From assembly GCA_963830935.1 (NCBI GenBank), contig CAWHOC010000002.1, positions 1 through 43,867 on the forward strand: a DNA stretch of 43,867 bases, read 5' to 3'. A program made the position numbers and the translations under genes. How positions within the stretch are numbered: position 1 is the first letter of the stretch; each line of letters begins with the position of its first letter. Source of the stretch: an uncultured bacterium. Its GTDB lineage: Bacteria > Patescibacteriota > Minisyncoccia > UBA6257 > 2-01-FULL-56-20. Below the pieces are notes generated by a model. It was not told the DNA's origin and ran no database searches. It saw nothing but the letters and a program-made list of their open reading frames with translations. Positions 2,608 through 43,062 of this stretch are shown piece after piece.

Positions 2608-3932
2608 ATGCCCACACCTAAACAAGAAAAAGAAAAACCTAGGGAACCTAAGGAGGTGGTGCGCACCTTCCAGTCCGCGAAGGGGATGCACGACGTCCTG
2701 CCCTCGGACGAACCGTATTGGGAAAAAATAGAGAGCGTGGCGCGACTCGCTCGCGACGGCGTATGGATTTTCGCGGATCGAACCGCCGATTTTGGAATTC
2801 GCAGAGCTCTATAATAAGACGTCCGGCGAGGAGAGCGACGTGGTGCAGAAGGAGATGTATACCTTGAAGACCAAGGGCGGCGATTTCCTGGCGCTCCGCC
2901 CGGAGTACACGCCGGGCATCTCTCGCGCGTATATGCAGCACGGCCTCTCGCGCCTCGGCCCGCCGCAGAAGCTCTTTGCGATGGGCCCGCTCTTCCGCCA
3001 CGAGCGTCCCCAGCTCGGCCGCCTGCGGCAGTTCACCCAGATCAATCTTGAGACGCTGGGCGGCGTGAACGATCCCATCTACGATGCGGAGATCATCGCG
3101 TTCTTTTGGGATCTGCTGAACGAGCTCAAGATCAAAGGACTCGCTCGTCAAGATCAACTCCATCGGATGCCGCATCTGCCGCCCGATCTATAAGAAGCAG
3201 CTCACCACGTATTATAAGAACCACGAAAAGGAGCTCTGCGAGGATTGTGAGCGCCGGCTGAAGGTAAATCCGCTCAAGCTGCTCGATTGCAAAGAGCCGG
3301 GATGCATCGCGCTCAAGGAGAAAGCGCCGAACTTCCTCGACAAGATCTGCGTGATGTGCAGCACGCACTTCAAATCCGTTTTGGAATATCTGGATGAGGT
3401 GAACATCCCGTACGAGCTTGACCACCACCTGGTGCGCGGGCTGGATTACTACAGCCGCACCGTGTTCGAGATGTATGCGGAAGGGAACGAGGCGCAGATC
3501 GGCGCGCTTCCCGCCGGCGGGCGCTACGATTACCTGATGGAAACGATCGGCGGCCATCTGACGCCCGCCGTCGGCGGCGCGTGCGGCGTGGAGCGGCTGA
3601 TCGCCGTCATGCGCGCGAAGGAGATCACATTCAACGGGAAGTCGAGCAAGCGCGTTTTCCTCGCGCACGCGGGCGACCTCGCAAAGAAGAAAGCGTTCGC
3701 CATTTTGAAGGACCTCCGCGGCCGCGGATTTCTCGTCTCCGAATCGCTCGCGAAAGAATCGCTCGCGGCACAGCTTAAGGTGGCGGACCGGGAGGGGATC
3801 GCGCTCGCGCTGATCCTTGGCCAGAAGGAGATCTACGAGAACAGCATCATCGTCCGCGACCTCGTGAACGGCCTGCAGGAGGCGGTGCCGCTCGAGAAGC
3901 TCGCGGACGAGATCAAAAAGCGCCAAAAATGA
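2608..3932 (+). CDS. hisS: histidine--tRNA ligase; two +1 frameshifts as written (~2760, ~3147)
   Basis: Class II aaRS/HisRS motifs are spread over frames 1, 2 and 3: GMHDVLP; YGFSRIEPPILEFAELY; KEMYTLKTKGGDFLALRPEYTPG; GPLFRHERPQLGRLRQFTQ; VKINSIGCRICRP; LVRGLDYYSRTVFE; GGRYDYL; anticodon-binding C-terminus. Confidence 0.9.
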
Positions 3933-3947
3933 AGGAAAACCAACCAC

Positions 3948-3975
3948 TTGACTATTAGGCCGATAATGGTATAAT
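3948..3975 (+). promoter_or_regulatory. sigma70-like promoter (TTGACT-N16-TATAAT with TGn extension)
   Basis: TTGACT at 3948-3953 and TATAAT at 3970-3975, preceded by TGG. Lies just upstream of the PP2C gene ATG at 3984. Confidence 0.45.
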
Positions 3976-3983
3976 ACTTGCAT

Positions 3984-5087
3984 ATGGTAGAAAAGCCCAA
4001 GCTGGAAGTGGAATCCAAAAGAAGTCGCAAAATCAAAGGCTCTGAATCGGCTCCAGGGGAGAAGATCCGTGCGATGGGGTTTAATGGCGAAATAGTCGGT
4101 GGTTGGAAAGTTATGCATCGCGGGAAAAAAGGACAGTGGGTGCTCGAGCGAACGGATGAGAATGGAGAAAAGTTGAAAAAGACGATCTCGGATGAAGAGC
4201 GTCTTTTATGGAATCCGGAACCCGTCGCCGTTCCGGAAGCGGAAAGCGAAGCCGTAGCTACACCAGTAGCGGAGGAAGATGTCGCTGCCCCCATCGAACG
4301 CGAAACGAATTCCAATGAGTTCGTCAGAGAATATGGCTCGGTAAGCCGTGCCGCAAGCAAGGAATCCCATGAAAAAAATGAGGACAGAATTTTAGCGCGA
4401 CCCGAAGATGGGTTCTTCGGTGTTTTTGATGGCATGGGAGGGCACGCTGGAGGGGAAAGGGCATCCGAATTGGCCAAAGCGACCATCGAGAAAAAGTTAA
4501 AGGAGTTGCCCAAAGACATGGACGCGAAGCAAGCGAAAGATGCCTTATGGGCCATTCTCAACGAAGCAAATCAGGCGGTTCTCGATGAGCAGAAAAGGGA
4601 TCCTCAATTAAAAGAAATGGGAACCACGGCCTCTTTGGTCAAGCTGATTTCCGACGGCGAAAAACAGTTTGCGGTAATAGTTACGGTTGGAGATAGCCCA
4701 GTGTATGTCGTCAGGAAAAACGGCGCGGACGGCGAGTTGGAATGCATGGGGATTGATAACGACATGTTGGGCGTCACGATGCCGGGAAGCCCGAGGGAAA
4801 TCAAGGAAGCGGATGCCCGACTGGCAAATGTCAAAACAATCGAAGATTACGCTAAGTTGGAGGATCACGAAAGAGATGCATTCGACCGGAGAAATGTGCT
4901 GGTAAACGGTCCTGTCGGTAGTAGTTATATGCTTCCGGAAGATTATCTGGTGCAGGTGGAGCCAGGAGATAGGATCGTGATCGCCTCGGATGGCATCACG
5001 GACAATCTTACCCGCGAGCGCATTGCTCAAATTGTCGGGAATCATTATTCCGAACGCTTCCGAGGCGTCCCAAATGTTAGCGAATGA
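3984..5087 (+). CDS. PP2C-family Ser/Thr protein phosphatase with an N-terminal extension
   Basis: PP2C motifs: FGVFDGMGGHAGGERAS, MGTTASL, VGDSPVY, IASDGITDNL. The track ORF starts at TTG 3978; the first ATG is at 3984. Confidence 0.8.
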   Translation: MVEKPKLEVESKRSRKIKGSESAPGEKIRAMGFNGEIVGGWKVMHRGKKGQWVLERTDENGEKLKKTISDEERLLWNPEPVAVPEAESEAVATPVAEEDVAAPIERETNSNEFVREYGSVSRAASKESHEKNEDRILARPEDGFFGVFDGMGGHAGGERASELAKATIEKKLKELPKDMDAKQAKDALWAILNEANQAVLDEQKRDPQLKEMGTTASLVKLISDGEKQFAVIVTVGDSPVYVVRKNGADGELECMGIDNDMLGVTMPGSPREIKEADARLANVKTIEDYAKLEDHERDAFDRRNVLVNGPVGSSYMLPEDYLVQVEPGDRIVIASDGITDNLTRERIAQIVGNHYSERFRGVPNVSE

Positions 5088-7456
5088 GGCGCAAGAGGTC
5101 GCCGAGTCAATTGAAATCTCCGGAGTATAAGAAATTCAGACAAGACAAGCAAGAATTTCCCGGGCGAAACATCCGGGCGAAGGATGATGACATGAGCACC
5201 ATCGTCATTGAGGTGGGCGAAGCGAAAAAGCCGGCCGAAACGCCGCCCCCGGCCGCTCCGGCTCCGGAAAAATCAAAATCCCGGTATGATTTTTGGACAC
5301 CGGGTATTAAGACCCAAGCTGAACCAAATCCCGCCGCGGAAAAACCTGTCGCTGAACCGACGCCGACGCTGGAGCCGCAGCCCGAACAGAAAGAAAAACT
5401 TCCCACGCTCGACGAGGCGCGCGCGGCATACGCAAAAGCGCATCGGGAATATCGCGAGGCGAATAAACGCAGCATTGCATCGATGCTCAATATCGGCGGC
5501 GACACATCCGCAATATCAGAGGCGCGCGCGGCGTATGACGCGGCGTTGAAGGCCGCCACGCATGCGGAACGGGAAAAGCTCACGGCAGAGAGCGAGGATA
5601 TAATGGAATCAAAAGATAAGGACCCATTAAAGTGGCGTTCTTCGGAAAATATAAATCGGGCACTTTTTGATAAATTCGTCGTTGACGAAGAGCGCAAGAT
5701 GGCGGGGTTAAAGATCTCGGAAATGCCCGAGCAGAAGCAGGGCATGCTTAAGAAGGCATGGACGGCATACGCGCGTCTGAAACCCTGGCAGAAGATCGCG
5801 CTCTCCACGGCGATCGGTACCGGCGCCTTCGCCGCTTCCGGAGTGGTCGCCGGATCCGCCATTCTTTACTATGCCGGCAGGCGTATCGTTGTTTCGGCCG
5901 GTGCGATCAAGGCAGCCCCGGTGATCATGAAAGGGATCGGGGCCGTGACCACGCTTGGGTACGAGGCATACGATAGGACATTGGGAAGAAAGAATACGAA
6001 GGAATATCAAATTGGCTCATTGCTCGCGAAGCGCGAAGGGGAGATTGCCGAATGCCTCGACGACATGCGCCTTAAATACGGTGACATTCTGGGGAAAGAG
6101 GCAGACCGTGAAAAGAAGCGGATGTATCTGAAGATCGCGATCGCCGCCGCAGTCGGCGTGGGTGCGGCGGGGTTGGCCGCTCACTATGTCCCGTCTGGCG
6201 GTGGTGGGGTGGAACATCATGTTCCTACAGGAGGGAAGCCGCTGGTGCCCGGCCATGCCACGCCCGATCATCCATCGGGTGCCCATCCAGCGGAGACACC
6301 GTCCGCGCCCAAGACAGTCGATCACCCCGCGAACGCTCCGGCGCATCCGGCCGAGACACCGCCACCATCACCTAAAGTCCCGGAACAACACGCATCCGCG
6401 CCCGCACCGGCAGCCGTATCAGTGGAACACCCTCCGATCGAGGTGCACAAAGGTGATTCGTTGTGGGAGATCACCGCAAAGGAACTTCAAAAAGATCCGG
6501 CATTTGATAAATTGAACGACGCGCAGAAGACGTGGATGATCAGCGACATCGTGGACCGCGCCGAGGCCCATAAAGCCGCGCTTGGCATTGCGAATCCTGA
6601 CGCGCTCGCCGTTGGAGAGAAGATCGACCTTTCGAGCGTTCTGAAGAGCGGTGACATCCATAGCTTGGTAGAGAAGGCGGGACACCTCACCGCCGCTCAG
6701 CAAGAACACATCCTTGCAAATAATCACGAGATATCAGCGTGGCTCCACGCGCATCCGCACGAGCAGCTGACCGGTGCGCGCGTCAATGAGATATTACATG
6801 GACACACGCCGGATCACCCGGAGATAACGACCGTGCAGCCGCCGGACGTGGACAATGCGATCCCACTGCAGCACCTGGAAAATTTCAAACTCGCCCCACA
6901 GCACGTGCAGGTCGGCAACATCGCGGAACAGATCCATAGAATGCCGTACAACCCGGAACATGGTCAGCAGCTCCTCGAACGCATTGACAGCATGGACCGG
7001 ATCCCGCCCCCGGAGATGCGGCAACTCTTCCTCGTCGCCGCGGAAAGGGTCGGAGATCATCACCCCATGTTCGTCGATATGAATAATGTTATGGAAGTGC
7101 ACCGCCGGATGAGGGATTATCTCGTCTCATATCCGAGGGCCCGTGATTTTGGATTCCATTCATACGACCACTGGGCGAGGGTAAGGGATGTCCCCGTGCA
7201 CAGGTTCGCGGAGGATACGATGATCTCGCCGCGTCCGGAAGCCATGCAATCGGCGCTCAGGCACTCGTTCTTCCATCGCGGCGCGAGCGTCCACGAAATG
7301 CAGGGTGACGCGCTGCGCAGGGTTCCGCTCGAGGAACGGCATGCGAACCTCGGCAGGGCGATCCGGGGAAACTCGGATCTCGTGCGCAGGGCGCCCGCGA
7401 CCACGACCGTGGGGGATTTCGTCGCGACGCATCATGGCGCGATAGGGAGAAAATGA
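5084..7456 (+). CDS. large membrane protein with Pro/Ala-rich linkers and a LysM-like segment; function unknown
   Basis: 790-aa uninterrupted ORF. Hydrophobic segments (ALSTAIGTGAFAASGVVAGSAILYYAG; IAIAAAVGVGAAGLAAHYV), proline-rich stretches, and a HKGDSLWEITAKEL...VGEKIDLS LysM-like stretch. An alternative start is ATG 5192. Confidence 0.6.
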   Translation: MRRKRSPSQLKSPEYKKFRQDKQEFPGRNIRAKDDDMSTIVIEVGEAKKPAETPPPAAPAPEKSKSRYDFWTPGIKTQAEPNPAAEKPVAEPTPTLEPQPEQKEKLPTLDEARAAYAKAHREYREANKRSIASMLNIGGDTSAISEARAAYDAALKAATHAEREKLTAESEDIMESKDKDPLKWRSSENINRALFDKFVVDEERKMAGLKISEMPEQKQGMLKKAWTAYARLKPWQKIALSTAIGTGAFAASGVVAGSAILYYAGRRIVVSAGAIKAAPVIMKGIGAVTTLGYEAYDRTLGRKNTKEYQIGSLLAKREGEIAECLDDMRLKYGDILGKEADREKKRMYLKIAIAAAVGVGAAGLAAHYVPSGGGGVEHHVPTGGKPLVPGHATPDHPSGAHPAETPSAPKTVDHPANAPAHPAETPPPSPKVPEQHASAPAPAAVSVEHPPIEVHKGDSLWEITAKELQKDPAFDKLNDAQKTWMISDIVDRAEAHKAALGIANPDALAVGEKIDLSSVLKSGDIHSLVEKAGHLTAAQQEHILANNHEISAWLHAHPHEQLTGARVNEILHGHTPDHPEITTVQPPDVDNAIPLQHLENFKLAPQHVQVGNIAEQIHRMPYNPEHGQQLLERIDSMDRIPPPEMRQLFLVAAERVGDHHPMFVDMNNVMEVHRRMRDYLVSYPRARDFGFHSYDHWARVRDVPVHRFAEDTMISPRPEAMQSALRHSFFHRGASVHEMQGDALRRVPLEERHANLGRAIRGNSDLVRRAPATTTVGDFVATHHGAIGRK

Positions 7457-8916: not shown

Positions 8917-9011
8917 TTTGATGGTGCTTGCGGCACCACGCCAGATTGCCACCTTGATATCCATAGTACTCGGATCTCTATGGACGTCAAGTCCAGGATT
9001 CTCGCCAACGT

Positions 9012-9082
9012 TGACCGGTGGGGAGTCGAACCCCAAACTTCCAGGTAGCAATCTGGCTATGATACCGTTTCACCACCGGCCC
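9012..9082 (-). tRNA. tRNA gene with irregular cloverleaf (possibly tRNA-Ala UGC; isotype uncertain)
   Basis: Minus strand reads GGGCCGG TG GTGA AACGGTA TCAT A GCCAG ATTGCTAC CTGGA AGTT TGGGG TTCGACT CCCCA CCGGTCA. The T-arm and D-arm are good and there is a G3:U70 pair. The anticodon loop is 8 nt as written and position 1:72 is G:A. Confidence 0.55.
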
Positions 9083-12533: not shown

Positions 12534-13593
12534 GAAGGGTCCACTTCCTCCGGCTTCTCCACAACTGGCGATTCAAGTTCAAGCTGCTCTCCCGTGATGC
12601 GCAAAATGTCTTTATTGATCTTCCCAAACTCCTTTCCGGCAGAGTTGTAGGCGGAGACGGTGGTCGTCAGGTTCTTGCCCACTTTGCCAAAGTATTCCTC
12701 ATAGCTCAGCAAGTGTTTGCCGAGTTCACCGACGCGTTCACTAATTTTTTCGCGCTCTCCTCGATGCGCAACGCTTTGAGGCCCTGGAGCACCGTCAAAA
12801 GATAGGCGTGGAAGGTGGTGGGGGAGACGATGATCACTTTCTTCTTGCCACTCGCGTATTCGATGAGGTTGACGTTATTGGACTTGAGCGCGCCCACTTT
12901 ATTGACGAGTAGGTCGTAGTAGACGGCCTCGGACGGGATGAACATGAATGCGAAGCCGAGCGTGCCTTCCTCCGGCTTTATGTATTTTGACGTCTCGTCG
13001 ATGCGGATCTTGAGGTCGTTCGCGAACGCGTTCTCAAAACGCTCACGCTCGGTCTTGTCGGCCGATTCCAAAATGCGATTGTAGTTCTCGAGCGAGAATT
13101 TGGAGTCCACGGGGATGATGCCGTCCTTTGTGATCACGGCGGCGTCCACGATCGTGCCATCCTTAAACGGATATTGCATCTGGTACGCGTTCGGCGGGAG
13201 CACGTTCTTCAGCACGGTCTCCAGATAATATTCGCCGAGTACGCCGCGCTGTTTCGGGTTCTTCAAAATATCCTGCAGGTTCTTGAGGTTGTCCGCGATG
13301 CTCACCACCTGGCGCTGGCCCTCGCCCACCTTAGCAAGTTCCTGCGTTATCTCGCGGATGAGGCGCGTGCTCTCCGTAGCCTGCGTGAACGCTTTGTTTG
13401 TGGAATCATTGATGGCCTTTGCCGAATCGCCCAGCTTGGTCTCGATCGTGCGGTTCAACTCGTTCAGTTGATTTTGGAGCATGAGCAACGATTGCGAATC
13501 CTCTTTTTGCGCCGGCCGATCCTGAAGTTTCCAAAGCCGCCACACGATGGCGGCAAAGAGGATAGCGATGATGATGAGCAGGATGGTTTCCAT
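12530..13593 (-). CDS. rmuC: DNA recombination protein RmuC; one frameshift in an A6/T6 run (~12745)
   Basis: N-terminal TM helix, coiled coil, then KQRGVLGEYYLE, PVDSKF, FMFIPSE. The C-terminus SERVGELGKHLLSYEEYFGKVGK continues in the 12530-12712 ORF. Confidence 0.85.
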
Positions 13594-13625
13594 ATAGATA
13601 GATTTTACTCTGATTGGCTGACAAA

Positions 13626-13652
13626 CAAAAATGCCCCCGAAGGGGCATTTTT
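13626..13652. terminator. bidirectional rho-independent terminator between rmuC and the RRM gene region
   Basis: aaaaatgcccc-cgaa-ggggcattttt. Confidence 0.7.
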
Positions 13653-31638: not shown

Positions 31639-32301
31639 CTATGCCGCCTTAGACCCCTCAATAAAATCTTCCAATTCGGCGATCTCGTTGTTCAACTGCA
31701 TAAGAAGCACCCTGTCGTCCGGTGTCCATGCATCGGTCCCGACATAGGTTTCGAGATTCGCCTTTCTCTCTTTTAGGGCAGCCAACTTTGCCAGAGGATC
31801 TTCCGATTGCTCCGGCTCGGCTTGGATACGTTCCCGCTTTCCGAAGAATGACATGATCTTATTGTAATACGCGTCCGGATTTATACAACCGTTGCCCGAT
31901 GCTTCTCGCACCGGCATCCTTTTGGCTTGATGAACTTGTCGAAATATTCTTTTCCGTAATCGTAGGTGAGCTCGCTGCCTGCCTTGATGCGCTTGCGGGA
32001 AAGGATGAATATTTTGCCGAACGGCCCGGTGGCTTCGCAGTTCGGCCTGCAGGAGTGATTGATGTAGCGGGCGCGGATTTGAGCGGACATTCCCGTCGAT
32101 CGTCTTTCGCGGGCTTACCTCAAAAAGATATTTGCCGCCGTCTTCTTCCGCCTCTTTTTCGCTCACAACGCGGCCCGTGTACTCGATGATGCATGCCCCT
32201 TTCGGGATGTCTTCTTCGGTAAAGAGCCCCTTGCCCGTCAACGACCGGCGCACCGCAAGTTTATATCCCCGCGGGGTGTATTTGGAAATTCGTTTTTTCA
32301 T
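31639..32301 (-). CDS. SET-domain protein (lysine methyltransferase-like) with a C-terminal extension; two compensating frameshifts (~32072, ~31905)
   Basis: GKGLFTEEDIPKGACIIEYTGRVV and YLFEV are in the long ORF. ARYINHSCRPNCEA and ELTYDYG are in the alternative frame (31881-32090). Confidence 0.7.
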   Translation of the reverse strand: MKKRISKYTPRGYKLAVRRSLTGKGLFTEEDIPKGACIIEYTGRVVSEKEAEEDGGKYLFEVSPRKTIDGNVRSNPRPLHQSLLQAELRSHRAVRQNIHPFPQAHQGRQRAHLRLRKRIFRQVHQAKRMPVREASGNGCINPDAYYNKIMSFFGKRERIQAEPEQSEDPLAKLAALKERKANLETYVGTDAWTPDDRVLLMQLNNEIAELEDFIEGSKAA

Positions 32302-34243: not shown

Positions 34244-34498
34244 CTAATTATATGGGTGGACTGTGCTCAAATCAACTGACCTAAGTTTTATAGCAGCTCC
34301 GCAGAATGGACAAGTAACGACACTGCCATTAGACGCTTTTCGAGCGATAAATTGGACGGACTTCGAGCGGGAACTGCGGTATTCCGGCATCTTGGAGATC
34401 GTGCCGCATGCTAAATAGGCCATTAGAACCAGCAAAAATCGGCATATTGACACAGCAATCCACTCATAGTATAATAAAGGCGTTCTTTTACAACTCAT
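34244..34498 (-). CDS. small membrane/zinc-ribbon-like hypothetical protein
   Basis: Read from the internal Met (MSCKRTPLL...) with a TM span and TCPFCGAAI. Ends 14 nt before the next gene start. Confidence 0.3.
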   Translation of the reverse strand: MSCKRTPLLYYEWIAVSICRFLLVLMAYLACGTISKMPEYRSSRSKSVQFIARKASNGSVVTCPFCGAAIKLRSVDLSTVHPYN

Positions 34499-34595: not shown

Positions 34596-35227
34596 ATGAG
34601 CAACCCAACATTCGATCAGGCGTTCCAGCTTCTCTCCGTCGTCCGCGAGGCCGACAAAAACCTTGAAGGACTCCAAGCGCTCTACACGACCGGGCTCCTC
34701 TCTGACCTTCTGAAGGCAGAGAACCTCGCCAAAGTGGATCGTGAGGCGTTCCGTAAACTCCTCGGTTTCGACCCCTCATCCTTCCGCGTGAAGAGGGCGC
34801 GGCAGAGACGACGGACGAGATCGCGGCTTACCTCAACGCAAACGGGTTCAACTACGTGAACGAGTGGATCAACCAGAAGAACTTTCCACTCAAAGCGAAG
34901 GAGATCCCCGAAGACGACGAGGTCGTAATCTACGATCCGGGCACGAGCTTCACGGAAGAAGAGGGTCTCGCGATCCTCAAGCGTGAAGGTCTGCTGCGGC
35001 CGACTTACGAGCACGGGCTGCGCTTTGCACGGGAGCATGGAACGACTACGACTTCCGCAAAGAAGCCCTTTGTCATCTTCCTGCACGAACCTTGGCGGGA
35101 CCCGAGCGGCGACCGTCGTATCGTCTGCGTGGACCGTAACCCCGACGACCGCGAGCTCTACTTGGTCTATCCCGACTGCGGGTTCGACGACCGCTGCGTG
35201 CTCGCCGGTGTCCGGCCTCGCAAGTAG
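34596..35227 (+). CDS. DGR target (variable) protein, ~210 aa, no signal peptide; one frameshift (~34780)
   Basis: The 34596-34859 ORF joins the frame open from 34757 (..GFDPSS / LPREEGAAETTDEIAAYLNANGFNYVNEWINQ..). The last ~44 codons are the VR (WRDPSGDRRIVCVDRNPDDRELYLVYPDCGFDDRCVLAGVRPRK). Confidence 0.75.
35092..35223 (+). repeat. DGR variable repeat (VR)
   Basis: Direct repeat of 35593-35729. Differs from the TR at 15 TR-adenine positions and 1 TR-cytosine position, plus one short unalignable patch. Confidence 0.85.
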
Positions 35228-35592
35228 TCCTCGGATTCTTTGTCCTTGGATCTTTGGGCCTTTTTCCCTTTGCCCGTTCCGATTTTGGAACCGGCATTTC
35301 TTTTTCTGAAAAATAAATCACAATAGAAAACGGAAGTAGATCAGCGTGCCCGCGGCTACGGCTTCGGACGGTCGAGCCTAACATCGCAAGCGCCGACGAG
35401 AGTGAAGCCGGCGCCGCCTTGCCGGAAAGAGCCGCATGCTTGCCGTTTTAAGAACGAGGATGCTTGGTGCGGGAAGTTGGAGGATTACCTATATGGGAGA
35501 TCCCAAATACGATACAGCTCCGAAGCTGTCGGCTTCGAGATAGCTCGCCCGACACCGAGGGGCAGTGGTGCTGATGACTTGCCGTACATTTT

Positions 35593-35729
35593 TTGGCAGG
35601 ACCCGAACGGCAACCGTCGTATCGTCTACGTGAACCGTAACCCCTCATAATCCGAAGCAAGCTCAACTTGAACTATCCCGACAACAAGTTCAACGACACC
35701 TGCGTGCTCGCCGGTGTCCGGCCTCGCAA
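35593..35729 (+). repeat. DGR template repeat (TR)
   Basis: Rich in AAC codons and has internal stops when translated. The 3' 28 nt (35700-35727) are A-free, GC-rich and identical to the VR end (IMH-like). Confidence 0.85.
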
Positions 35730-35738
35730 CCCTCTTCG

Positions 35739-36116
35739 TTATTTTACCGCCGCCCGGGGGAGTTGTTCTCGGCGGCAGCGTCACTTGCCGCAGCCAACCG
35801 CCGAGCATCCGACCAACCTCGTCAAGCGGTTCCGACAGCGCTACGTACTTCGAATTGTCGAGCACTTTAATTTCCCACCCGAGCTGAAGGAAGAACTTCA
35901 GCATGTCCAATTTTCCGACCGCTTCTTGGAGGTACGGACTTTTCTGTTCTTTGGGCAGAAAACTGGTACGTATAACAACTCATTATTCCAGAAACAGCTG
36001 CATCGACTTTCTCGCCGAAGCGGCACAGCGGCATTCGAAACATTTGGAAGGATGCCATACCAGAGCTTATACGCGGCCGTGAACTTTTGAAGGATCGGCA
36101 GGTCGCCGGTTCGCAT
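35739..36116 (-). CDS. avd: Avd-like accessory variability determinant (four-helix bundle); at least 2 frameshifts, 3' end uncertain
   Basis: N-terminus MRTGDLPILQKFTAAYKLWYGILP. C-terminal part SFLPKEQKSPYLQEAVGKLDMLKFFLQLGWEIKVLDNSKYVALSEPLDEVGRMLGGWLRQ, found in three minus-strand frames. Confidence 0.7.
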
Positions 36117-36143
36117 TCTTTATTCGTCTCCATATTTATTTTA

Positions 36144-37147
36144 ATGAAAACAAGGTCATTGCTCACGCTCGACCATATCGCAAGCACCGGAATCCTCATT
36201 CCAGGCATGGCAGGAGTTCGTCGCTGGAAAGCAGAAGCGGATCGACGTGCAGGCATCTGCGCACCTGACAACGCGATTGCGCTTCATCGAGAGATCATTT
36301 CTCGACTCGATCGCCACGGGCCATACAATGGCGCTTTCAGCATCAGCGATCCGAAGCCACGCAACATTCACAAAGCCCTCGTGCGCGTCCGATTGCTGCA
36401 TCACGCGATCTACCGAAAACTCTATCCATTTTTTGATCGGACGTTCATCGCACACTCGTATTCCTGTCGAGAAAATAAGGGGACACAAAAGTACCCCATT
36501 GCTTCGATGCGTTTGCTCGTCGCGTGAGCCAAAACCATACGCGCACAGTATGGGTGCTGAAATGCGATGTCCGCAAGTTCTTTGCGAGCATCGACCATGA
36601 GATATTGCTGGGCATCTTGCAGCGCCGTATTCCCGACGATGAGGTCTTCTGGCTTTTGCGTGAGATCATCGAGAGCTTTTAGATTCGACGCGTCCGGGCG
36701 TTGGGCTGCCACTTGGTAACCTCACCTCGCAACTCCTCGTAAACGTTTACATGGACGAGTTCGATCAGTTTGTAAAACGTGATCTTGGAGTCAAATACTA
36801 TGTTCGCTACGCCGATGATTTTGCGATTTTCTCGCAAGACAAAATATGGCTCGTAGAGATGTTGACGCGGATCAAAATGTTTTTCGAGAACCGTTTGCAT
36901 CTTACTCTTCATCCCGATAAAATCTCCATTACGAGCTTCGCATCCGGTAGATTTTCTGGATGGGTCCATTTTCCTGATCATCGGGTCTTGCGTACCACGA
37001 CCAAGCGTCGGATGTTCAAACGGATCGAACAGCATCCGTACCCGCAAACCATCGCATCGTACGTGGGAATGCTGACAATATGGCAACGCAAAAAACCTTT
37101 CTGACAAAATCGAGGTTCTTTATCCACATGTTTCGGAGGGAATGTGA
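36144..37147 (+). CDS. DGR-type reverse transcriptase; at least 7 frameshifts as written
   Basis: Motifs, spread over three frames: AWQEFVAGKQKRIDVQ; FSISDPKPRNIHKA; RLLHHAIYRKLYPFFDRTFIAHSYSCRENKGT; VLKCDVRKFFASIDHEIL; GLPLGNLTSQLLVNVYMDEFDQFVK; YVRYADDFAIF; LHPDKISI; GWVHFPDHRVLR; GMLT(H)GNAKNLSDKIEVLYPHVSEGM stop at 37145-37147. Confidence 0.85.
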
Positions 37148-37460
37148 AAACGTCCTACTTCTCCGCGTATTACCAAAGACGAATATGACAAAAAGCTGCA
37201 AGACCTCAAGGATCGGCAGTACCGGCTCAATCTCGAACTCGACGAACACACAAAAGCCGATCACGAGTACCACATCCACGTATCCACGGTAATAAATCTG
37301 TGCCGTCGCATCCGCATCATCTTCGAAGGTTCGGAAGTAAGCGAAAAACACGCAATTATCAATTTCGTACTATCGAACCTATCGGTAACCGACAGAAAAC
37401 TCAAGTATTCCTTACGTAAACCATTCGATGCAGTGCTCGATTTAGCACTATCGTCCAACT
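37148..37460 (+). pseudogene. remnant (C-terminal ~100 aa) of a large serine recombinase
   Basis: The frame opens right after the RT stop: ITKDEYDKKLQDLKDRQYRLNLELDEHTKADHEYHIHVSTVINLCRRIRIIFEGSEVSEKHAIINFVLSNLSVTDRKLKYSLRKPFDAVLDLA. This matches the conserved C-terminal helical region of large serine recombinases (..EK+..+NFVLSN......L....+PFD). No catalytic N-terminal domain is present. Confidence 0.65.
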
Positions 37461-37461
37461 T

Positions 37462-37488
37462 TGCTCCGCGACCAGGACTCGAACCTGG
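37462..37488 (-). repeat. partial tRNA-Asn copy (T-arm + 3' acceptor strand, 27 nt)
   Basis: tgctccgcgaccaggactcgaacctgg is identical to 37505-37531. Confidence 0.9.
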
Positions 37489-37506
37489 GAATGTTTTATC
37501 AACCTG

Positions 37507-37578
37507 CTCCGCGACCAGGACTCGAACCTGGAACCATCGCCTTAACAGGGCGCCGCTCTACCATTGAGCTATCGCGGA
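37507..37578 (-). tRNA. tRNA-Asn (anticodon GTT)
   Basis: TCCGCGA TA GCTC AATGGTA GAGC G GCGCC CTGTTAA GGCGA TGGTT CCAGG TTCGAGT CCTGG TCGCGGA G. Canonical cloverleaf, G73 discriminator, CCA not encoded. Confidence 0.9.
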
Positions 37579-37603: not shown

Positions 37604-37729
37604 AACCAATCGCCTTACTATCGGCAGCGAGACCGATAATGAAAAATGCTTTTCATTATCGTCGAGCGAACCGATAGGCAAAATCATTATTTTGCACAGG
37701 GCGCCGCTCTACCATTGAGCTATCGCGGA
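37604..37729 (-). pseudogene. disrupted second tRNA-Asn copy: 5' half (37696-37729), 78-nt structured insert in the anticodon (37618-37695), 14 nt of the 3' anticodon stem/variable region (37604-37617); T-arm missing
   Basis: 37696-37729 is identical to 37545-37578. TAAGGCGATTGGTT matches TAAGGCGATGGTT of the intact gene. The insert folds into a 7-bp hairpin plus a 7-bp stem enclosing a 12-bp hairpin. Confidence 0.75.
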
Positions 37730-40886: not shown

Positions 40887-41270
40887 AATGAAGATGATGT
40901 TGGTCCGCGCAAAAATTCATTTTTCCTTTCCCCGTGGCCGCGTCATCATTCAGAAAACGCTCTCGAAAGTATCATCGTGAAGGAAAACATACTTTCGAGA
41001 TAGTTTTCTTGATGGATGGATTTTTGATCTTGTCTTGGGACTGAGAACCGCGATGCGCGCGGTTTCTGAAATTTTTGTGCGGCTATTAATTTTTTATTTC
41101 GACATAGCCATTGTAGCACAGGTGCAAGCTGTGCATAACTCGCCAGGACCCATAAATGCACCGCTTTTATGGTTCCGTCAAAAGATGTTGGAATAGAAAT
41201 GAAAAATAAAGGGTTTTTCTTTCCGGAAGACTTCTCGGGTCTCGCACGGGTGAAATGTTATAATGACAAC

Positions 41271-43062
41271 ATGGCTAAAGTGTCAAATCATGACGTTGCC
41301 GGGATGCTCCGCGAGATCGGGGAGCATCTTGCGATGAAAAATATTCCGTTCAAGCCGCGCGCGTACGAAAAAGCCGCGGGCGTGGTCGATGGACTCGAAG
41401 AAGAGGTTGCGGAGATCTATAAAACCGGCGGAAAAAAAGCGCTCGAAGCGATCCCCGGCGTCGGAATTTCCATCGCGGAAAAGATAGAAGAGTTTTTAAA
41501 GACCGGCCATGTGAAATATTTGGAGGGACTTGAGCGAAAAACGCCGGTCGATCTTGCGGGATTGTCGCGCGTCGAGGGATTGGGACCGAAATCGATCAAG
41601 ACGCTCTATCAAAAATTGGATATCCGGACCGTTGCGGAGCTTGAAGCGGCGGCGAAGGCGGGAAAGATCGCGAAGCTCGAAGGATTCGGCGAAAAAAAAG
41701 AAGAAAATATTTTAAAGGGCATCGGTTTCGCGAAATCTTCCGGCGGACGGTTCGTGCTCGGATTTGAAATGGCGGAGATCCGCGGGATCGAAAAAAGATT
41801 GCGGGATTTGCGTGACGTGAAAAAAGTTATCGTCGCCGGTTCGGCGCGGCGACGGAAAGAAACGATCGGCGACGCGGACATCCTCGCGGTTTCGAAAAAT
41901 CCGAAACCGATGATGGATTTTTTTACGGCGATGCCGGAGGTGGTGAACGTGATCGCGCACGGTGCGACGAAATCATCCGTGAAATTGAAATCGGGGATCA
42001 ACGTCGATCTTCGCGTCGTCGAAGAAAAATCCTATGGCGCGGCGCTCAATTATTTTACGGGATCGAAAGATCACAATGTTGCGTTGCGGCGCATCGCGAT
42101 GGCGAAAGGTTTGAAGTTGAACGAGTACGGATTGTTCCGCGGAGAAAAAATGATCGCGGGAAAAACGGAAGAGGAAATTTATAAAAAGTTTGGGATGGAT
42201 TACATCGAGCCCGAACTTCGGGAAAATACCGGCGAGATAGAGGCGGCGAAAAAACATGCACTGCCGAAATTGATCGGCTACGAAGATCTGCTGCGGCGAT
42301 CTTCAGGTGCAAACAAATTGGACGGACGGATCGGATTCGATCGAGTCGATGGCGAAAGCGGCGATGGCCCGCGGCTTGAAATATATTGCGATCACCGATC
42401 ACACGAAACGCTTGGCGATGACGCACGGCCTGGATGAGAAACGTATCATGGAGCAGATGGCGGAGATCGACCGCGCTGAATAAAAAATTGAAAGGGAAGA
42501 TAACGATCTATTAAAGGGAAGCGAGTGCGACATTCTGAAGGATGGCACGCTCGATCTGCCGGACAAAATCCTTGAAAAGCTCGATATGGTAGGCGTTTCG
42601 GTCCATTCCTACTTCAATCTGCCGCGCGAGGAGCAGACAGAGCGCATAAAACGGGCCATGGCGAACCCGAACGTCGATATTCTGTTCCATCCCGACCGGC
42701 CGGTTATAAACCGCCGCCCGGCCTATGACGTTAATATAGAGGAGCTTGTCGCGACCGCCAAGAAGACGGGAACGATCATGGAAATAGATGCTTTTCCGGA
42801 CCGGCTGGACCTGAAAGATGAGCATATCCGGCTTTGCGTGGAGGCCGGCGTCAAAATGGCGATAGATTCCGACGCCCACGCACCGGCGCATTTCCCATAT
42901 CTCGAATACGGCATCGCGCAAGCGAGAAGGGGATGGGCGGAAAAAAAAGATATCATAAACGCCTGGCCGGTCGAAAAGATGCTGAAGTTTCTGAAGAAGA
43001 AATTCCCAAAATATGTCATCTCCGCGAAGACGGAGAATACCATGCTATTGCATCTTTCCTAA
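41271..43062 (+). CDS. polX: family X DNA polymerase with a C-terminal PHP domain; 3 frameshifts (~42293, ~42474, ~42512)
   Basis: HhH motifs (IPGVGISIAEKI, VEGLGPKSIKTL). Pol beta-like nucleotidyltransferase (AGSARRRKETIGDADIL). PHP motifs (GDLQVQTNWTDGSDS, ITDHTK, SVHS, DSDAH). Confidence 0.85.

Follow-up and report, generated by a model that had tools for sequence, protein, structure and literature searches.

The window, i.e. the whole 43,867-nt stretch of DNA analysed here, contains a gene cassette with the parts of a diversity-generating retroelement (DGR) (Table 1). On the plus strand, a small target gene carrying the repeat VR at its 3' end is followed by a structured leader, the repeat TR and a hairpin, which together would form one RNA gene; an accessory variability determinant gene (avd) in reverse orientation and a reverse transcriptase (RT) gene complete the cassette. 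The sequence-only reading had called this a complete DGR. Every defining part was present and stood up to testing, but none of the DGR genes was intact as sequenced. We interpret the element as a chromosomal DGR of the CPR/Patescibacteria clade that would operate by the mechanism proposed below and whose indels are most likely noise, and we assign this interpretation a probability of roughly 0.8. The main reference for comparison was a cassette with 95% identity to that of the window and with an intact TR (L002).

Table 1. Features of the DGR cassette and its borders in the window.
Feature	Position	Strand	Remarks
Left edge of conserved cassette	34294-34309	+	Homology to L001, L002 and L103 starts at GCTCCGCAGAATGGAC
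Promoter-like site of target gene	34447-34475	+	TTGACA, 17 nt, TATAAT; 12/12 matches
Target gene, ~210 aa	34596-35227	+	Patescibacteria hypothetical-protein family; -1 frameshift near 34794-34798 as sequenced
VR	35092-35223	+	Encodes the 44 C-terminal residues of the target; exactly 132 nt, in frame
IMH-like VR end	35194-35223	+	30 nt identical to TR end; GC-rich
Degenerate short repeats CCTCGG / CCTTGG / CTTTGG	35229-35262	+	Just 3' of VR
Hairpin and T-run, putative target-gene terminator	35269-35306	+	Read from sequence
Weak -10-like CACAAT	35319-35324	+	Upstream of leader
Structured leader of DGR RNA	35332-35592	+	~260 nt, directly 5' of TR
Leader helices P1; P2	35348-35369; 35390-35434	+	
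Leader helix P3	35467-35478 with 35576-35587	+	
Leader helices P4; P5	35482-35485 with 35500-35503; 35517-35521 with 35559-35563	+	
TR	35593-35729	+	Damage specific to the window: excess of 5 nt and 6 substitutions at 35645-35656, A>C at 35699
TCTTCGTT	35733-35740	+	Just 3' of TR; pairs with leader AACGAGGA (35453-35460); pairing covaries across loci
Stem-loop 3' of TR	35749-35776	+	Overlap with the final avd codons (opposite strand)
avd	35742-36133	-	7 frame corrections; corrected Avd 89% identical to that of L002
DGR reverse transcriptase	36144-37147	+	5 frame corrections; start codon 10 nt from divergent avd start
ORF fragment	37169-37460	+	Common to L001
tRNA-Asn	37506-37578	-	Duplicated 27-nt 3' fragment at 37462-37488
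Duplicated tRNA-Asn 5' fragment	37696-37729		

The repeat finder returned two alignable TR/VR blocks at the same coordinates that had been proposed from the sequence alone, namely 35092-35143 with 35593-35644 (52 nt, 90%) and 35151-35223 with 35657-35729 (73 nt, 85%). A base-by-base count over both blocks reproduced the 16 mismatches between the TR of the window and its own VR. Rather than being spread over the four TR bases, 15 of these fell on TR adenines (from TR to VR eleven A>G, three A>T and one A>C), the remaining one being TR C35699 versus VR G35193. Adenines made up 30 of the 125 aligned TR nucleotides, and the hypergeometric probability of at least 15 out of 16 mismatches at adenines was 2.4e-10. 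Between the two blocks, 12 nt of the TR (35645-35656, TCATAATCCGAA) stood against 7 nt of the VR (35144-35150, GACGACC) and could not be aligned. This stretch and the lone C>G mismatch are damage peculiar to the TR of the window and do not reflect DGR behaviour. Compared with the intact TR of L002, all 17 differences of the window VR were located at TR adenines (P=2e-12), and all of them affected codon position 1 or 2. In this comparison, 34 positions of the window VR are opposite an adenine of the intact TR. The A-free, GC-rich and identical repeat end of 28 nt that had been described before was borne out, with identity reaching 30 nt (35700-35729 and 35194-35223) and the final two bases being AA; no further copy of this end was found in the window. 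Examination for IMH and IMH* sequences showed that TR and VR part beyond CGCAA, where the TR continues with CCCT and the VR with GTAG, and the shared end represents a putative IMH.

Among four cassettes of ~95% identity located on four contigs, the TR was invariant, and each of the 27 variable VR columns faced a TR adenine. The upstream coding sequence differed between L002 and L001 at a single nucleotide in 497 nt. VR diversification has thus taken place recently within this lineage, and the high identity of the cassettes, the invariant TR and the adenine-facing VR columns together show very recent activity of the element in an uncultivated lineage. The same pattern extended to ~50 loci of the same RT clade, in which 859 of 900 TR/VR mismatches were found at TR adenines.

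The presence of an Avd-like gene beside the repeats was confirmed, on the minus strand, by matches to NCBIfam DivGenRetAVD (6e-12) and Pfam bAvd (1e-7) in the window; the intact Avd of L002 reached 71.6 bits (6e-20) with DivGenRetAVD, whose curated cut-off is 80, and also matched PHROG 3206, annotated as "Avd protein of DGR", with 4e-17. These scores are significant, yet they lie under the curated cut-offs of NCBIfam and Pfam, and a search of the PDB gave no sequence match for the Avd homologue. After correction the RT was 93% identical to the intact 334-aa RT of L002 and showed zero in-frame stops. On L002, the RT gene occupies 4498-5502 and avd 4487-4092, and the corresponding RNA spans about 3696-4130. 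All three RT motifs that had been read from the sequence were found, though in different reading frames: SYSCR.NKGT (as SYSCRENKGT, 36456-36485), GLPLGNLTSQ (36703-36732) and YVRYADDF (36799-36822). With the intact relative as query, the best RT of solved structure was bRT from a Bordetella phage (8ub7_A, 1e-42), compared to ~1e-23 (at most 7e-24) for group II and retron-type RTs. Within the second motif, LGNLTSQ (36709-36729) aligned to IGSLTSQ of bRT (I181-Q187 in 8ub7_A). DGR-type RTs carry [I/L]GxxxSQ at the position where group II and retron RTs have QGxxxSP.

One could also regard the repeat as a remnant of ordinary duplication or gene conversion, the RT as belonging to a retron, a group II intron or a defence system, and the adenine bias as chance, and the top NCBIfam model for the RT was indeed that of group II intron RT/maturase (TIGR04416). 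Its 117-140 bits were, however, far under the curated cut-off of 300, the Retron St85 model reached 53 against a cut-off of 235, and the group II model ranks first because NCBIfam holds no DGR RT model. Among solved homologues, bRT was the best by ~19 orders of magnitude in E-value. The adenine bias, with P in the range of 1e-10 to 1e-12, recurred in the ~50 related loci, an Avd is present, and a search of Rfam yielded neither intron nor retron RNA. We therefore consider such an origin extremely improbable.

As a DGR, the element is conventional in layout and host. The order TR, avd on the minus strand and RT was the same in the window, in L002, L004 and L007, and in all retrieved RT loci whose upstream DNA was long enough; in all of these loci avd was located directly upstream of the RT gene. 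Hosts were Patescibacteria according to the record titles, the element is chromosomal, and a single adjacent target carries its VR at the C-terminus and has no recognisable domain or transmembrane segment, all as in other CPR DGRs of this type. The DGRs of CPR/Patescibacteria have reportedly been described by Paul et al. in 2017. The arrangement TR-(avd)-RT corresponds to architecture B3, which was found in 90% of CPR DGRs (Wu et al. 2018, PMC5758913), and a CPR-restricted DGR clade is known as clade 2 of Roux et al. 2021 (PMC8144416). Because the element is a Patescibacteria DGR with this published arrangement, layout and host are typical and the novelty earlier attributed to layout and context was not upheld. 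In architecture we found no difference to CPR B3 DGRs; the window copy differs in being frameshifted as sequenced.

The target gene had been taken for a single open frame, which is in fact interrupted by a -1 shift (Table 1). It belongs to a family with 89 database relatives of ~210 aa, for which no mapping to published UVR classes was found. The protein had no Pfam match. An AF2 model reached a pLDDT of 85 (>90 over residues 60-210), and Foldseek searches of PDB and BFVD with this model gave top matches that were mostly C-type lectin domains, none of them significant (E at least 0.09, TM 0.26-0.58). The model weakly suggests a C-type-lectin-like fold. Downstream of the VR, most related loci had similar short repeats. 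The stem of the putative terminator was perfect in L002, and one of its pairs was broken in the window.

The leader directly 5' of the TR was conserved throughout the RT clade regardless of the target. Relatives in a scan of metagenomes number more than 559. Compensatory changes were seen in 37 of its 44 base pairs, and 95.1% of the paired cells in the alignment could pair, versus 72.5% in shuffles and ~44% when the partners were slid. The number of compensatory cells was 498, as opposed to 138 in shuffles, and none of 500 shuffles reached the observed value by any measure. A covariance model built without the window and without L002 gave one match in the window (35450-35589, 72 bits, E=1e-15). 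It further matched 25 of 60 loci outside the training set, all with an RT or a cassette, and 0 target-only loci; L103, where the cassette is present and the RT lost, was among the loci matched. Covariation thus establishes an RNA structure for the leader. The structure also involves the sequence 3' of the TR, for which the duplex with the leader was predicted at -8.0 kcal/mol for cognate and -5.6 kcal/mol for non-cognate pairs (RNAduplex and permutation test, 0/5000 permutations). RNAalifold returned no structure for the region 3' of the TR because alignment gaps split the hairpin arms, and the hairpin was read by eye; in most relatives a U-tract comes after this stem-loop. Within the leader, 5 base pairs that L002 retains are disrupted by changes specific to the window.

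Folded as a single sequence, the whole RNA of L002 was no more stable than shuffles (z = -1.2), and therefore only the comparative evidence carries weight. This fold would suit an alternative in which the leader forms a separate element outside the DGR RNA, such as the 5' UTR or a regulator of a different gene, or protein-binding DNA. We judge this to be very unlikely, as the leader was always found on the TR strand, ending 8-10 nt before the TR, and occurred once per RT-bearing locus and was absent from all target-only loci. Conservation at the DNA level would not produce the covariation seen in its base pairs, and the leader also covaries with the segment that directly follows the TR.

Rfam 15 contained no match to the leader/TR region of the window at the gathering threshold and nothing relevant at E<=10 over 35200-36200, nor was there a match in 19 related loci (15 searched at the gathering threshold, 4 at E<=1). 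In the literature, of which our coverage of DGR papers was partial, an earlier description of the leader was not found. Among curated RNA motifs, RT-10 alone has been connected with a DGR (Weinberg et al. 2017, PMC5737381). It resembles the leader in being a structured RNA beside a DGR template repeat with a proposed role in reverse transcription; in contrast to RT-10 and the other motifs of the RT-1 to RT-19 series, the leader of the window lies upstream of the TR and is without an Rfam 15 match. Retron msr-msd RNA offers an analogy only, being a structured non-coding RNA with a template segment inside it that is offered to the cognate RT; there is no relation in sequence or family, and the DGR product recodes a gene and forms no msDNA.

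With leader, TR and hairpin taken as a single DGR RNA, the closest comparison is the Bordetella phage BPP-1 DGR (mtd-VR, avd, TR, Sp, brt). Both share a homologous RT in which the motif contacting template and dNTP is the same, an Avd homologue, mutagenesis at the adenines of AAC-rich codons, an A-poor, GC-rich and IMH-like repeat end, and a stem-loop directly 3' of the TR. RNA segments 5' and 3' of the TR pair with each other, comparable to the published avd:Sp RNA duplex (bioRxiv 10.1101/2023.10.23.563531). The element in the window differs from BPP-1 in that avd is encoded on the opposite strand, outside the TR transcript, and that the structured RNA is located nearly entirely 5' of the TR (~260 nt), whereas the 140-nt Sp of BPP-1 is 3' of the TR. 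Moreover, its VR is followed by short CCTTGG-like repeats without an immediate GC hairpin, the TR and VR ends are identical through CGCAA with no IMH/IMH* difference inside the repeat, and the host is cellular and not a phage. We see about an even chance that the leader, the terminal stem-loop and the covarying pairing of the leader with 8-9 nt 3' of the TR make up an RNA family not described before, which would serve CPR-type (B3) DGRs as the scaffold for RT and Avd. Such a scaffold would be a permuted counterpart of Bordetella Sp RNA, in which nearly all structure is placed 5' of the template and the TR loops out where two helices adjoin; avd would be expressed on its own from the opposite strand. 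If so, the primer nucleotide might be situated in the invariant leader motifs GAUACUUGG, AAUACGAUACAGC and GCAGUGG.

If the element works like the Bordetella phage DGR, the plus strand would give rise to a non-coding RNA of ~450 nt (roughly 35332-35776), with start and end as we infer them. Its leader is predicted to fold into five helices, and the segment 3' of the TR would pair back to the leader, so that a compact scaffold might present the ~132-nt TR as a loop. This RNA might then recruit RT and Avd into an RNP, in which the RT would copy the TR from a presumed priming site into cDNA and misincorporate opposite adenines. In a homing step the cDNA would replace the VR, with the shared 30-nt A-poor end as a likely 3' anchor. 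As a result, up to ~20 of the 44 C-terminal residues of the small target protein would be recoded.

Reading frames had to be corrected at 13 places in the DGR genes as sequenced (~6.4 per kb), once in the target, seven times in avd and five times in the RT gene. The TR of the window carries a 5-nt insertion and is longer than the VR by this length, thus full-length homing from it would frameshift the target. A similar density of frameshifts was found in the gene for ribonucleotide reductase (RNR; 40886-39265), with 12 (7.4 per kb) relative to a homologue of 86% identity. Because this nearby gene also needs 12 corrections, the noise in the DGR is probably technical. The 13 frameshifts and the damaged TR are accordingly best explained, in our view, as probable indel noise of assembly or sequencing rather than biological decay. 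A profile of stop-free frames along the window was only suggestive of noise limited to the region beyond 30 kb, and we therefore restrict the claim to the noise not being specific to the DGR.

True decay of the window copy, with real frameshifts in target, avd and RT genes, a real 5-nt insertion in the TR and a VR that is a fossil, is the less favoured explanation and seems unlikely to us. Losses do occur in related cassettes: L001 lacks the 3' half of its RT gene, which was lost between CGCGT microhomologies, and in L103, which is syntenic with the window, the 5' part of avd and the RT gene are replaced by 243 nt with 99% identity to L002 6026-6270. The broken pairs in leader and terminator mentioned above would also agree with decay, as would the differences between window and L002 that were partly clustered in multi-base patches and were not simple homopolymer indels. 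Against decay, an essential housekeeping gene 2 kb away shows an equal frameshift density (RNR, 12 in 1.6 kb), the frame-corrected DGR genes are free of nonsense codons and retain 89-93% aa identity, and the VR is in frame with exactly 132 nt. Split PolX and RNR genes were likewise seen in related "contig_N" assemblies that stem from this type of dataset.

At the borders of the cassette, the sequence at the left edge resembled a 3' fragment of tRNA-Asn (TGCTCCGCGACCAGGAC), and fragments of a tRNA-Asn gene were duplicated on the right (Table 1). The cassette ends might be explained by a tRNA-att model, which we treat as a lead because the left edge gives only 7+4 matching bases. The ORF fragment downstream of the RT gene had no match in Pfam or PHROGs, and its assignment as a serine recombinase C-terminus was dropped as nothing in these databases corresponded to it.

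The element adds one example to a well-catalogued class of DGRs and for this reason matters little on its own. Two by-products of its analysis may be of greater importance. The near-identical cassettes on four contigs represent a clean natural experiment on adenine-directed diversification. As to the RNA, a considerable part of the DGRs known to date belongs to the CPR clade, and to our knowledge no DGR of this clade has been reconstituted so far. The covariation-backed unit of ~450 nt, comprising leader, TR, 3' pairing and hairpin, defines the RNA to co-express with RT and Avd, and suggests that the RNP architecture solved for the Bordetella phage DGR is permuted in the CPR clade.

The sequence-only reading had recognised a diversity-generating retroelement (DGR) with a target gene, an Avd and a reverse transcriptase (RT). 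All three genes were identified, although none is a single open frame as sequenced, and the RT motifs it had named were present but spread over three different frames. After stitching, the RT matched Pfam RVT_1 (1e-20) and the Avd matched Pfam bAvd (1e-7) and NCBIfam DivGenRetAVD (6e-12). An intact copy of the entire cassette, 95% identical to that of the window, was found on a related contig, L002. Its Avd gave stronger matches (DivGenRetAVD 6e-20; PHROG 'Avd protein of DGR' 4e-17) and the best solved relative of its RT was 8ub7_A (1e-42), with group II and retron-type RTs at about 1e-23. We take 8ub7_A to be Bordetella phage bRT from the position of its IGSLTSQ motif at I181-Q187, residues named for bRT (bioRxiv 10.1101/2023.10.23.563531). 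This bRT motif aligned with LGNLTSQ of the window.

Features of the DGR cassette and its surroundings (window coordinates unless L002 is named)
Feature	Location	Strand	Remarks
tRNA-like gene	9010-9082	minus	
SET-domain gene	31639-32301		
Target gene	34596-35227	plus	
Variable repeat (VR)	35092-35223		3' end of target
Structured leader	35332-35592; L002 3696-3947; about 45 other loci		about 260 nt, directly 5' of TR
Leader partner of post-TR stretch	35453-35460		AACGAGGA; just 5' of P3
Long-range helix P3	35467-35478 with 35576-35587		
Template repeat (TR)	35593-35729		non-coding
Conserved post-TR stretch	35733-35740		UCUUCGUU; just 3' of TR
Stem-loop 3' of TR	35749-35776		overlaps avd stop region on opposite strand
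avd	36133 to about 35742	minus	stitched, profile matches
RT	36144-37147	plus	
Duplicate of tRNA-Asn 3' part	37462-37488		27 nt, exact
tRNA-Asn	37506-37578		
Duplicate of tRNA-Asn 5' part	37696-37729		34 nt, exact
Class II ribonucleotide reductase (RNR)	40886-39265	minus	
PolX gene	41169-42437		
L002 target	2955-3587		
L002 TR			132 nt, colinear with own VR
L002 Avd		minus	
L002 RT			334 aa, uninterrupted
L002 LOOT RNA	6587-6705	minus	Rfam, 75.7 bits, about 1 kb downstream of intact cassette

A repeat finder returned exactly the two blocks proposed earlier (35092-35143 with 35593-35644, and 35151-35223 with 35657-35729), and the 16 mismatches were reproduced base by base: A to G 11 times, A to T three times, A to C once and C to G once (TR 35699, VR 35193). 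Adenines make up 30 of the 125 aligned TR nucleotides, and chance would place 15 or more of the 16 mismatches on them with a probability of 2.4e-10. The stretch between the blocks could not be aligned (12 nt in TR, TCATAATCCGAA, versus 7 nt in VR, GACGACC). TR and VR share an identical last 30 nt with no further copy in the window, which indicates a single target. Adenine-specific divergence, the Avd match and 8ub7_A as nearest solved relative of the RT bear out the interpretation as a DGR.

The divergent start codons of avd and RT lie 10 nt apart, so that each promoter must sit within the other gene, and this close spacing recurs throughout the RT clade. A metagenome scan with the RT yielded more than 559 relatives. 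Among 80 fetched loci, avd was inverted and directly upstream of RT wherever upstream DNA was available; a TR/VR pair was found in about 50, with 859 of 900 mismatches at TR adenines, and most of these diversify other target families. The novelty earlier suggested for layout and context did not hold up: the gene order is the published architecture B3, TR-(avd)-RT, which makes up 90% of the CPR set of Wu et al. 2018 (PMC5758913), and the host context is that of a known Patescibacteria-restricted, cellular DGR clade with targets lacking recognisable domains (Roux et al. 2021, PMC8144416). The window itself encodes FtsA/FtsZ, cytochrome o oxidase, RNR and PolX and resembles a Patescibacteria chromosome segment. 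In its first 3000 nt G+C is 61-65%, compared with about 50-58% in the remainder, and long ORFs overlap on the two strands; a foreign origin or a chimeric join may account for this stretch. The tRNA-like gene was not assigned an anticodon by ARAGORN and scored only 34.6 bits against Rfam tRNA.

VRs and TRs were aligned from the window and three contigs with close relatives of its cassette (L001, L002, L003). The relatives' TR reads GACAACC at the site of TCATAATCCGAA and GACAAC at the site of the window's GACACC; by this alignment the unalignable block and the C to G mismatch are damage in the window's own TR. Against the intact TR, the window VR differs at 17 positions, all of them TR adenines in the first or second codon position (P=2e-12). 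The TRs of L002 and a further close relative, L103, are identical (132/132). Among four near-identical cassettes 27 VR columns vary, and every one faces a TR adenine. Upstream of the VR, 497 nt of target CDS carry one difference between L002 and L001, as against 19 in the 132-nt VR. This comparison takes the place of the read mapping suggested earlier, and the VR differences show what looks like very recent mutagenic homing in the window's lineage.

The target search gave 89 relatives of about 210 aa, none with a Pfam domain, and every named source was a Patescibacteria MAG. Modelled with AlphaFold2 from 53 aligned sequences, the target has a confident predicted structure (pLDDT 85 overall, above 90 for residues 60-210) in which the VR takes up the last four strands. 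Foldseek matched this model mostly to C-type lectin domains, none significantly, and the usual DGR scaffold, a C-type lectin fold, is plausible for the modelled target. Of 15 species-representative genomes, 12 have a target homologue with neither RT nor Avd inside 4 kb. The C-terminal 45 residues are hypervariable family-wide, even though most target-bearing representatives (L005, L009-L012, L014-L022) lack RT, Avd and leader alike over that distance. Several degenerate CCTTGG/CTTTGA-like copies follow the VR (35229-35262), and similar repeats occur in the first 60-80 nt past the VR in most of the related loci L004-L101, whatever the target; these repeats may act in recognition of the target site.

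Over 2.87 kb the window cassette differs from L002 by 109 substitutions and 23 indel events. Frameshift-aware alignment required five corrections in RT, seven in Avd and one in the target, after which no in-frame stops remained and identity was 89-93%. For the RNR gene 2 kb downstream, comparison with a homologue of 86% identity called for 12 corrections, a density much like that of the DGR genes. Since RNR and also the SET-domain and PolX genes appear interrupted, indel noise extends beyond the DGR. Related contigs of one sample carry assembler-style 'contig_N' names, among them L103 with split PolX and RNR genes. Five leader base pairs intact in L002 are broken by window-specific changes. 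We consider the gene disruption not specific to the DGR and probably technical (roughly four chances in five). The window's DGR may instead be truly decayed, a possibility we keep because its relatives have genuine structural losses: L001 lacks the 3' half of RT, deleted between CGCGT microhomologies (L001 7543-8343), and L103 has lost RT and the 5' part of avd, replaced by 243 nt (13404-13647) 99% identical to L002 6026-6270. Both truncated DGRs retain diversified VRs.

The left edge of homology to L001, L002 and L103 is identical to the base, at 34294 (GCTCCGCAGAATGGAC; GCTCCGC...), and the flanks beyond it are unrelated, giving four different genomic contexts. On the right, homology to L002 stops just past the RT stop, behind TCTCCGCG (37167), and that to L001 runs on through an ORF fragment to about 37470, adjoining the duplicated tRNA-Asn 3' fragment (TGCTCCGCGACCAGGAC...), which the ends of the 2.9-kb cassette resemble. 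The exact duplicates flanking tRNA-Asn form a pattern as left by integration and excision events; no integrase was found. L103 is syntenic with the window on the tRNA-Asn/RNR/PolX side, and these housekeeping flanks are 85% identical versus 95-96% for the cassette between contigs, so the cassette appears recently exchanged or homogenised. Such sequence comparisons suggest recent cassette exchange at a tRNA-linked island.

The leader is kept throughout the CPR DGR RT clade irrespective of target family; across loci with unrelated targets, the spacer between VR and TR keeps both its length (median about 340 nt) and its motifs. RNAalifold on 47 aligned leaders predicted 44 pairs, and 37 of these show compensatory double changes. 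Paired cells reached 95.1%; shuffling the columns gave 72.5% and sliding the partners about 44%. Compensatory cells numbered 498 versus 138 in shuffles, and none of 500 shuffles attained the observed value on any measure. A covariance model of the 3' domain, built leaving out the window and L002, matched the window once (35450-35589, 72 bits, E=1e-15). Among 60 loci outside the model it matched 25, all with RT or cassette (L103 has lost its RT), and no target-only locus.

P3 closes 8-10 nt ahead of TR. The conserved stretch just 3' of TR (consensus UCUUCAUU) pairs with a leader segment (AAUGAAGA); this pairing covaries across loci, and duplex energies favour cognate over non-cognate combinations (-8.0 versus -5.6 kcal/mol; 0 of 5000 permutations). 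A U-tract comes after the stem-loop in most loci, and many have an extended -10-like sequence, TGnTAnAAT, about 7 nt ahead of the point where conservation of the leader sets in. Taken together, helix, pairing and stem-loop give a predicted RNA unit of about 450 nt (leader-TR-pairing-hairpin) with TR extruded between two adjacent helices. Rfam 15 gave no match for the leader in the window or 19 related loci, Wu et al. are silent on it, and the range of a Bordetella-based RNA-element survey ended 40 nt before and 100 nt after TR. We could not find an earlier description, Paul et al. 2017 being outside this comparison. The window carries a noisy copy of an element that fits unremarkably into the known CPR B3 DGR group; of most interest are this leader RNA, for which no description was found, and the clean record of recent activity that the cassettes give when compared.
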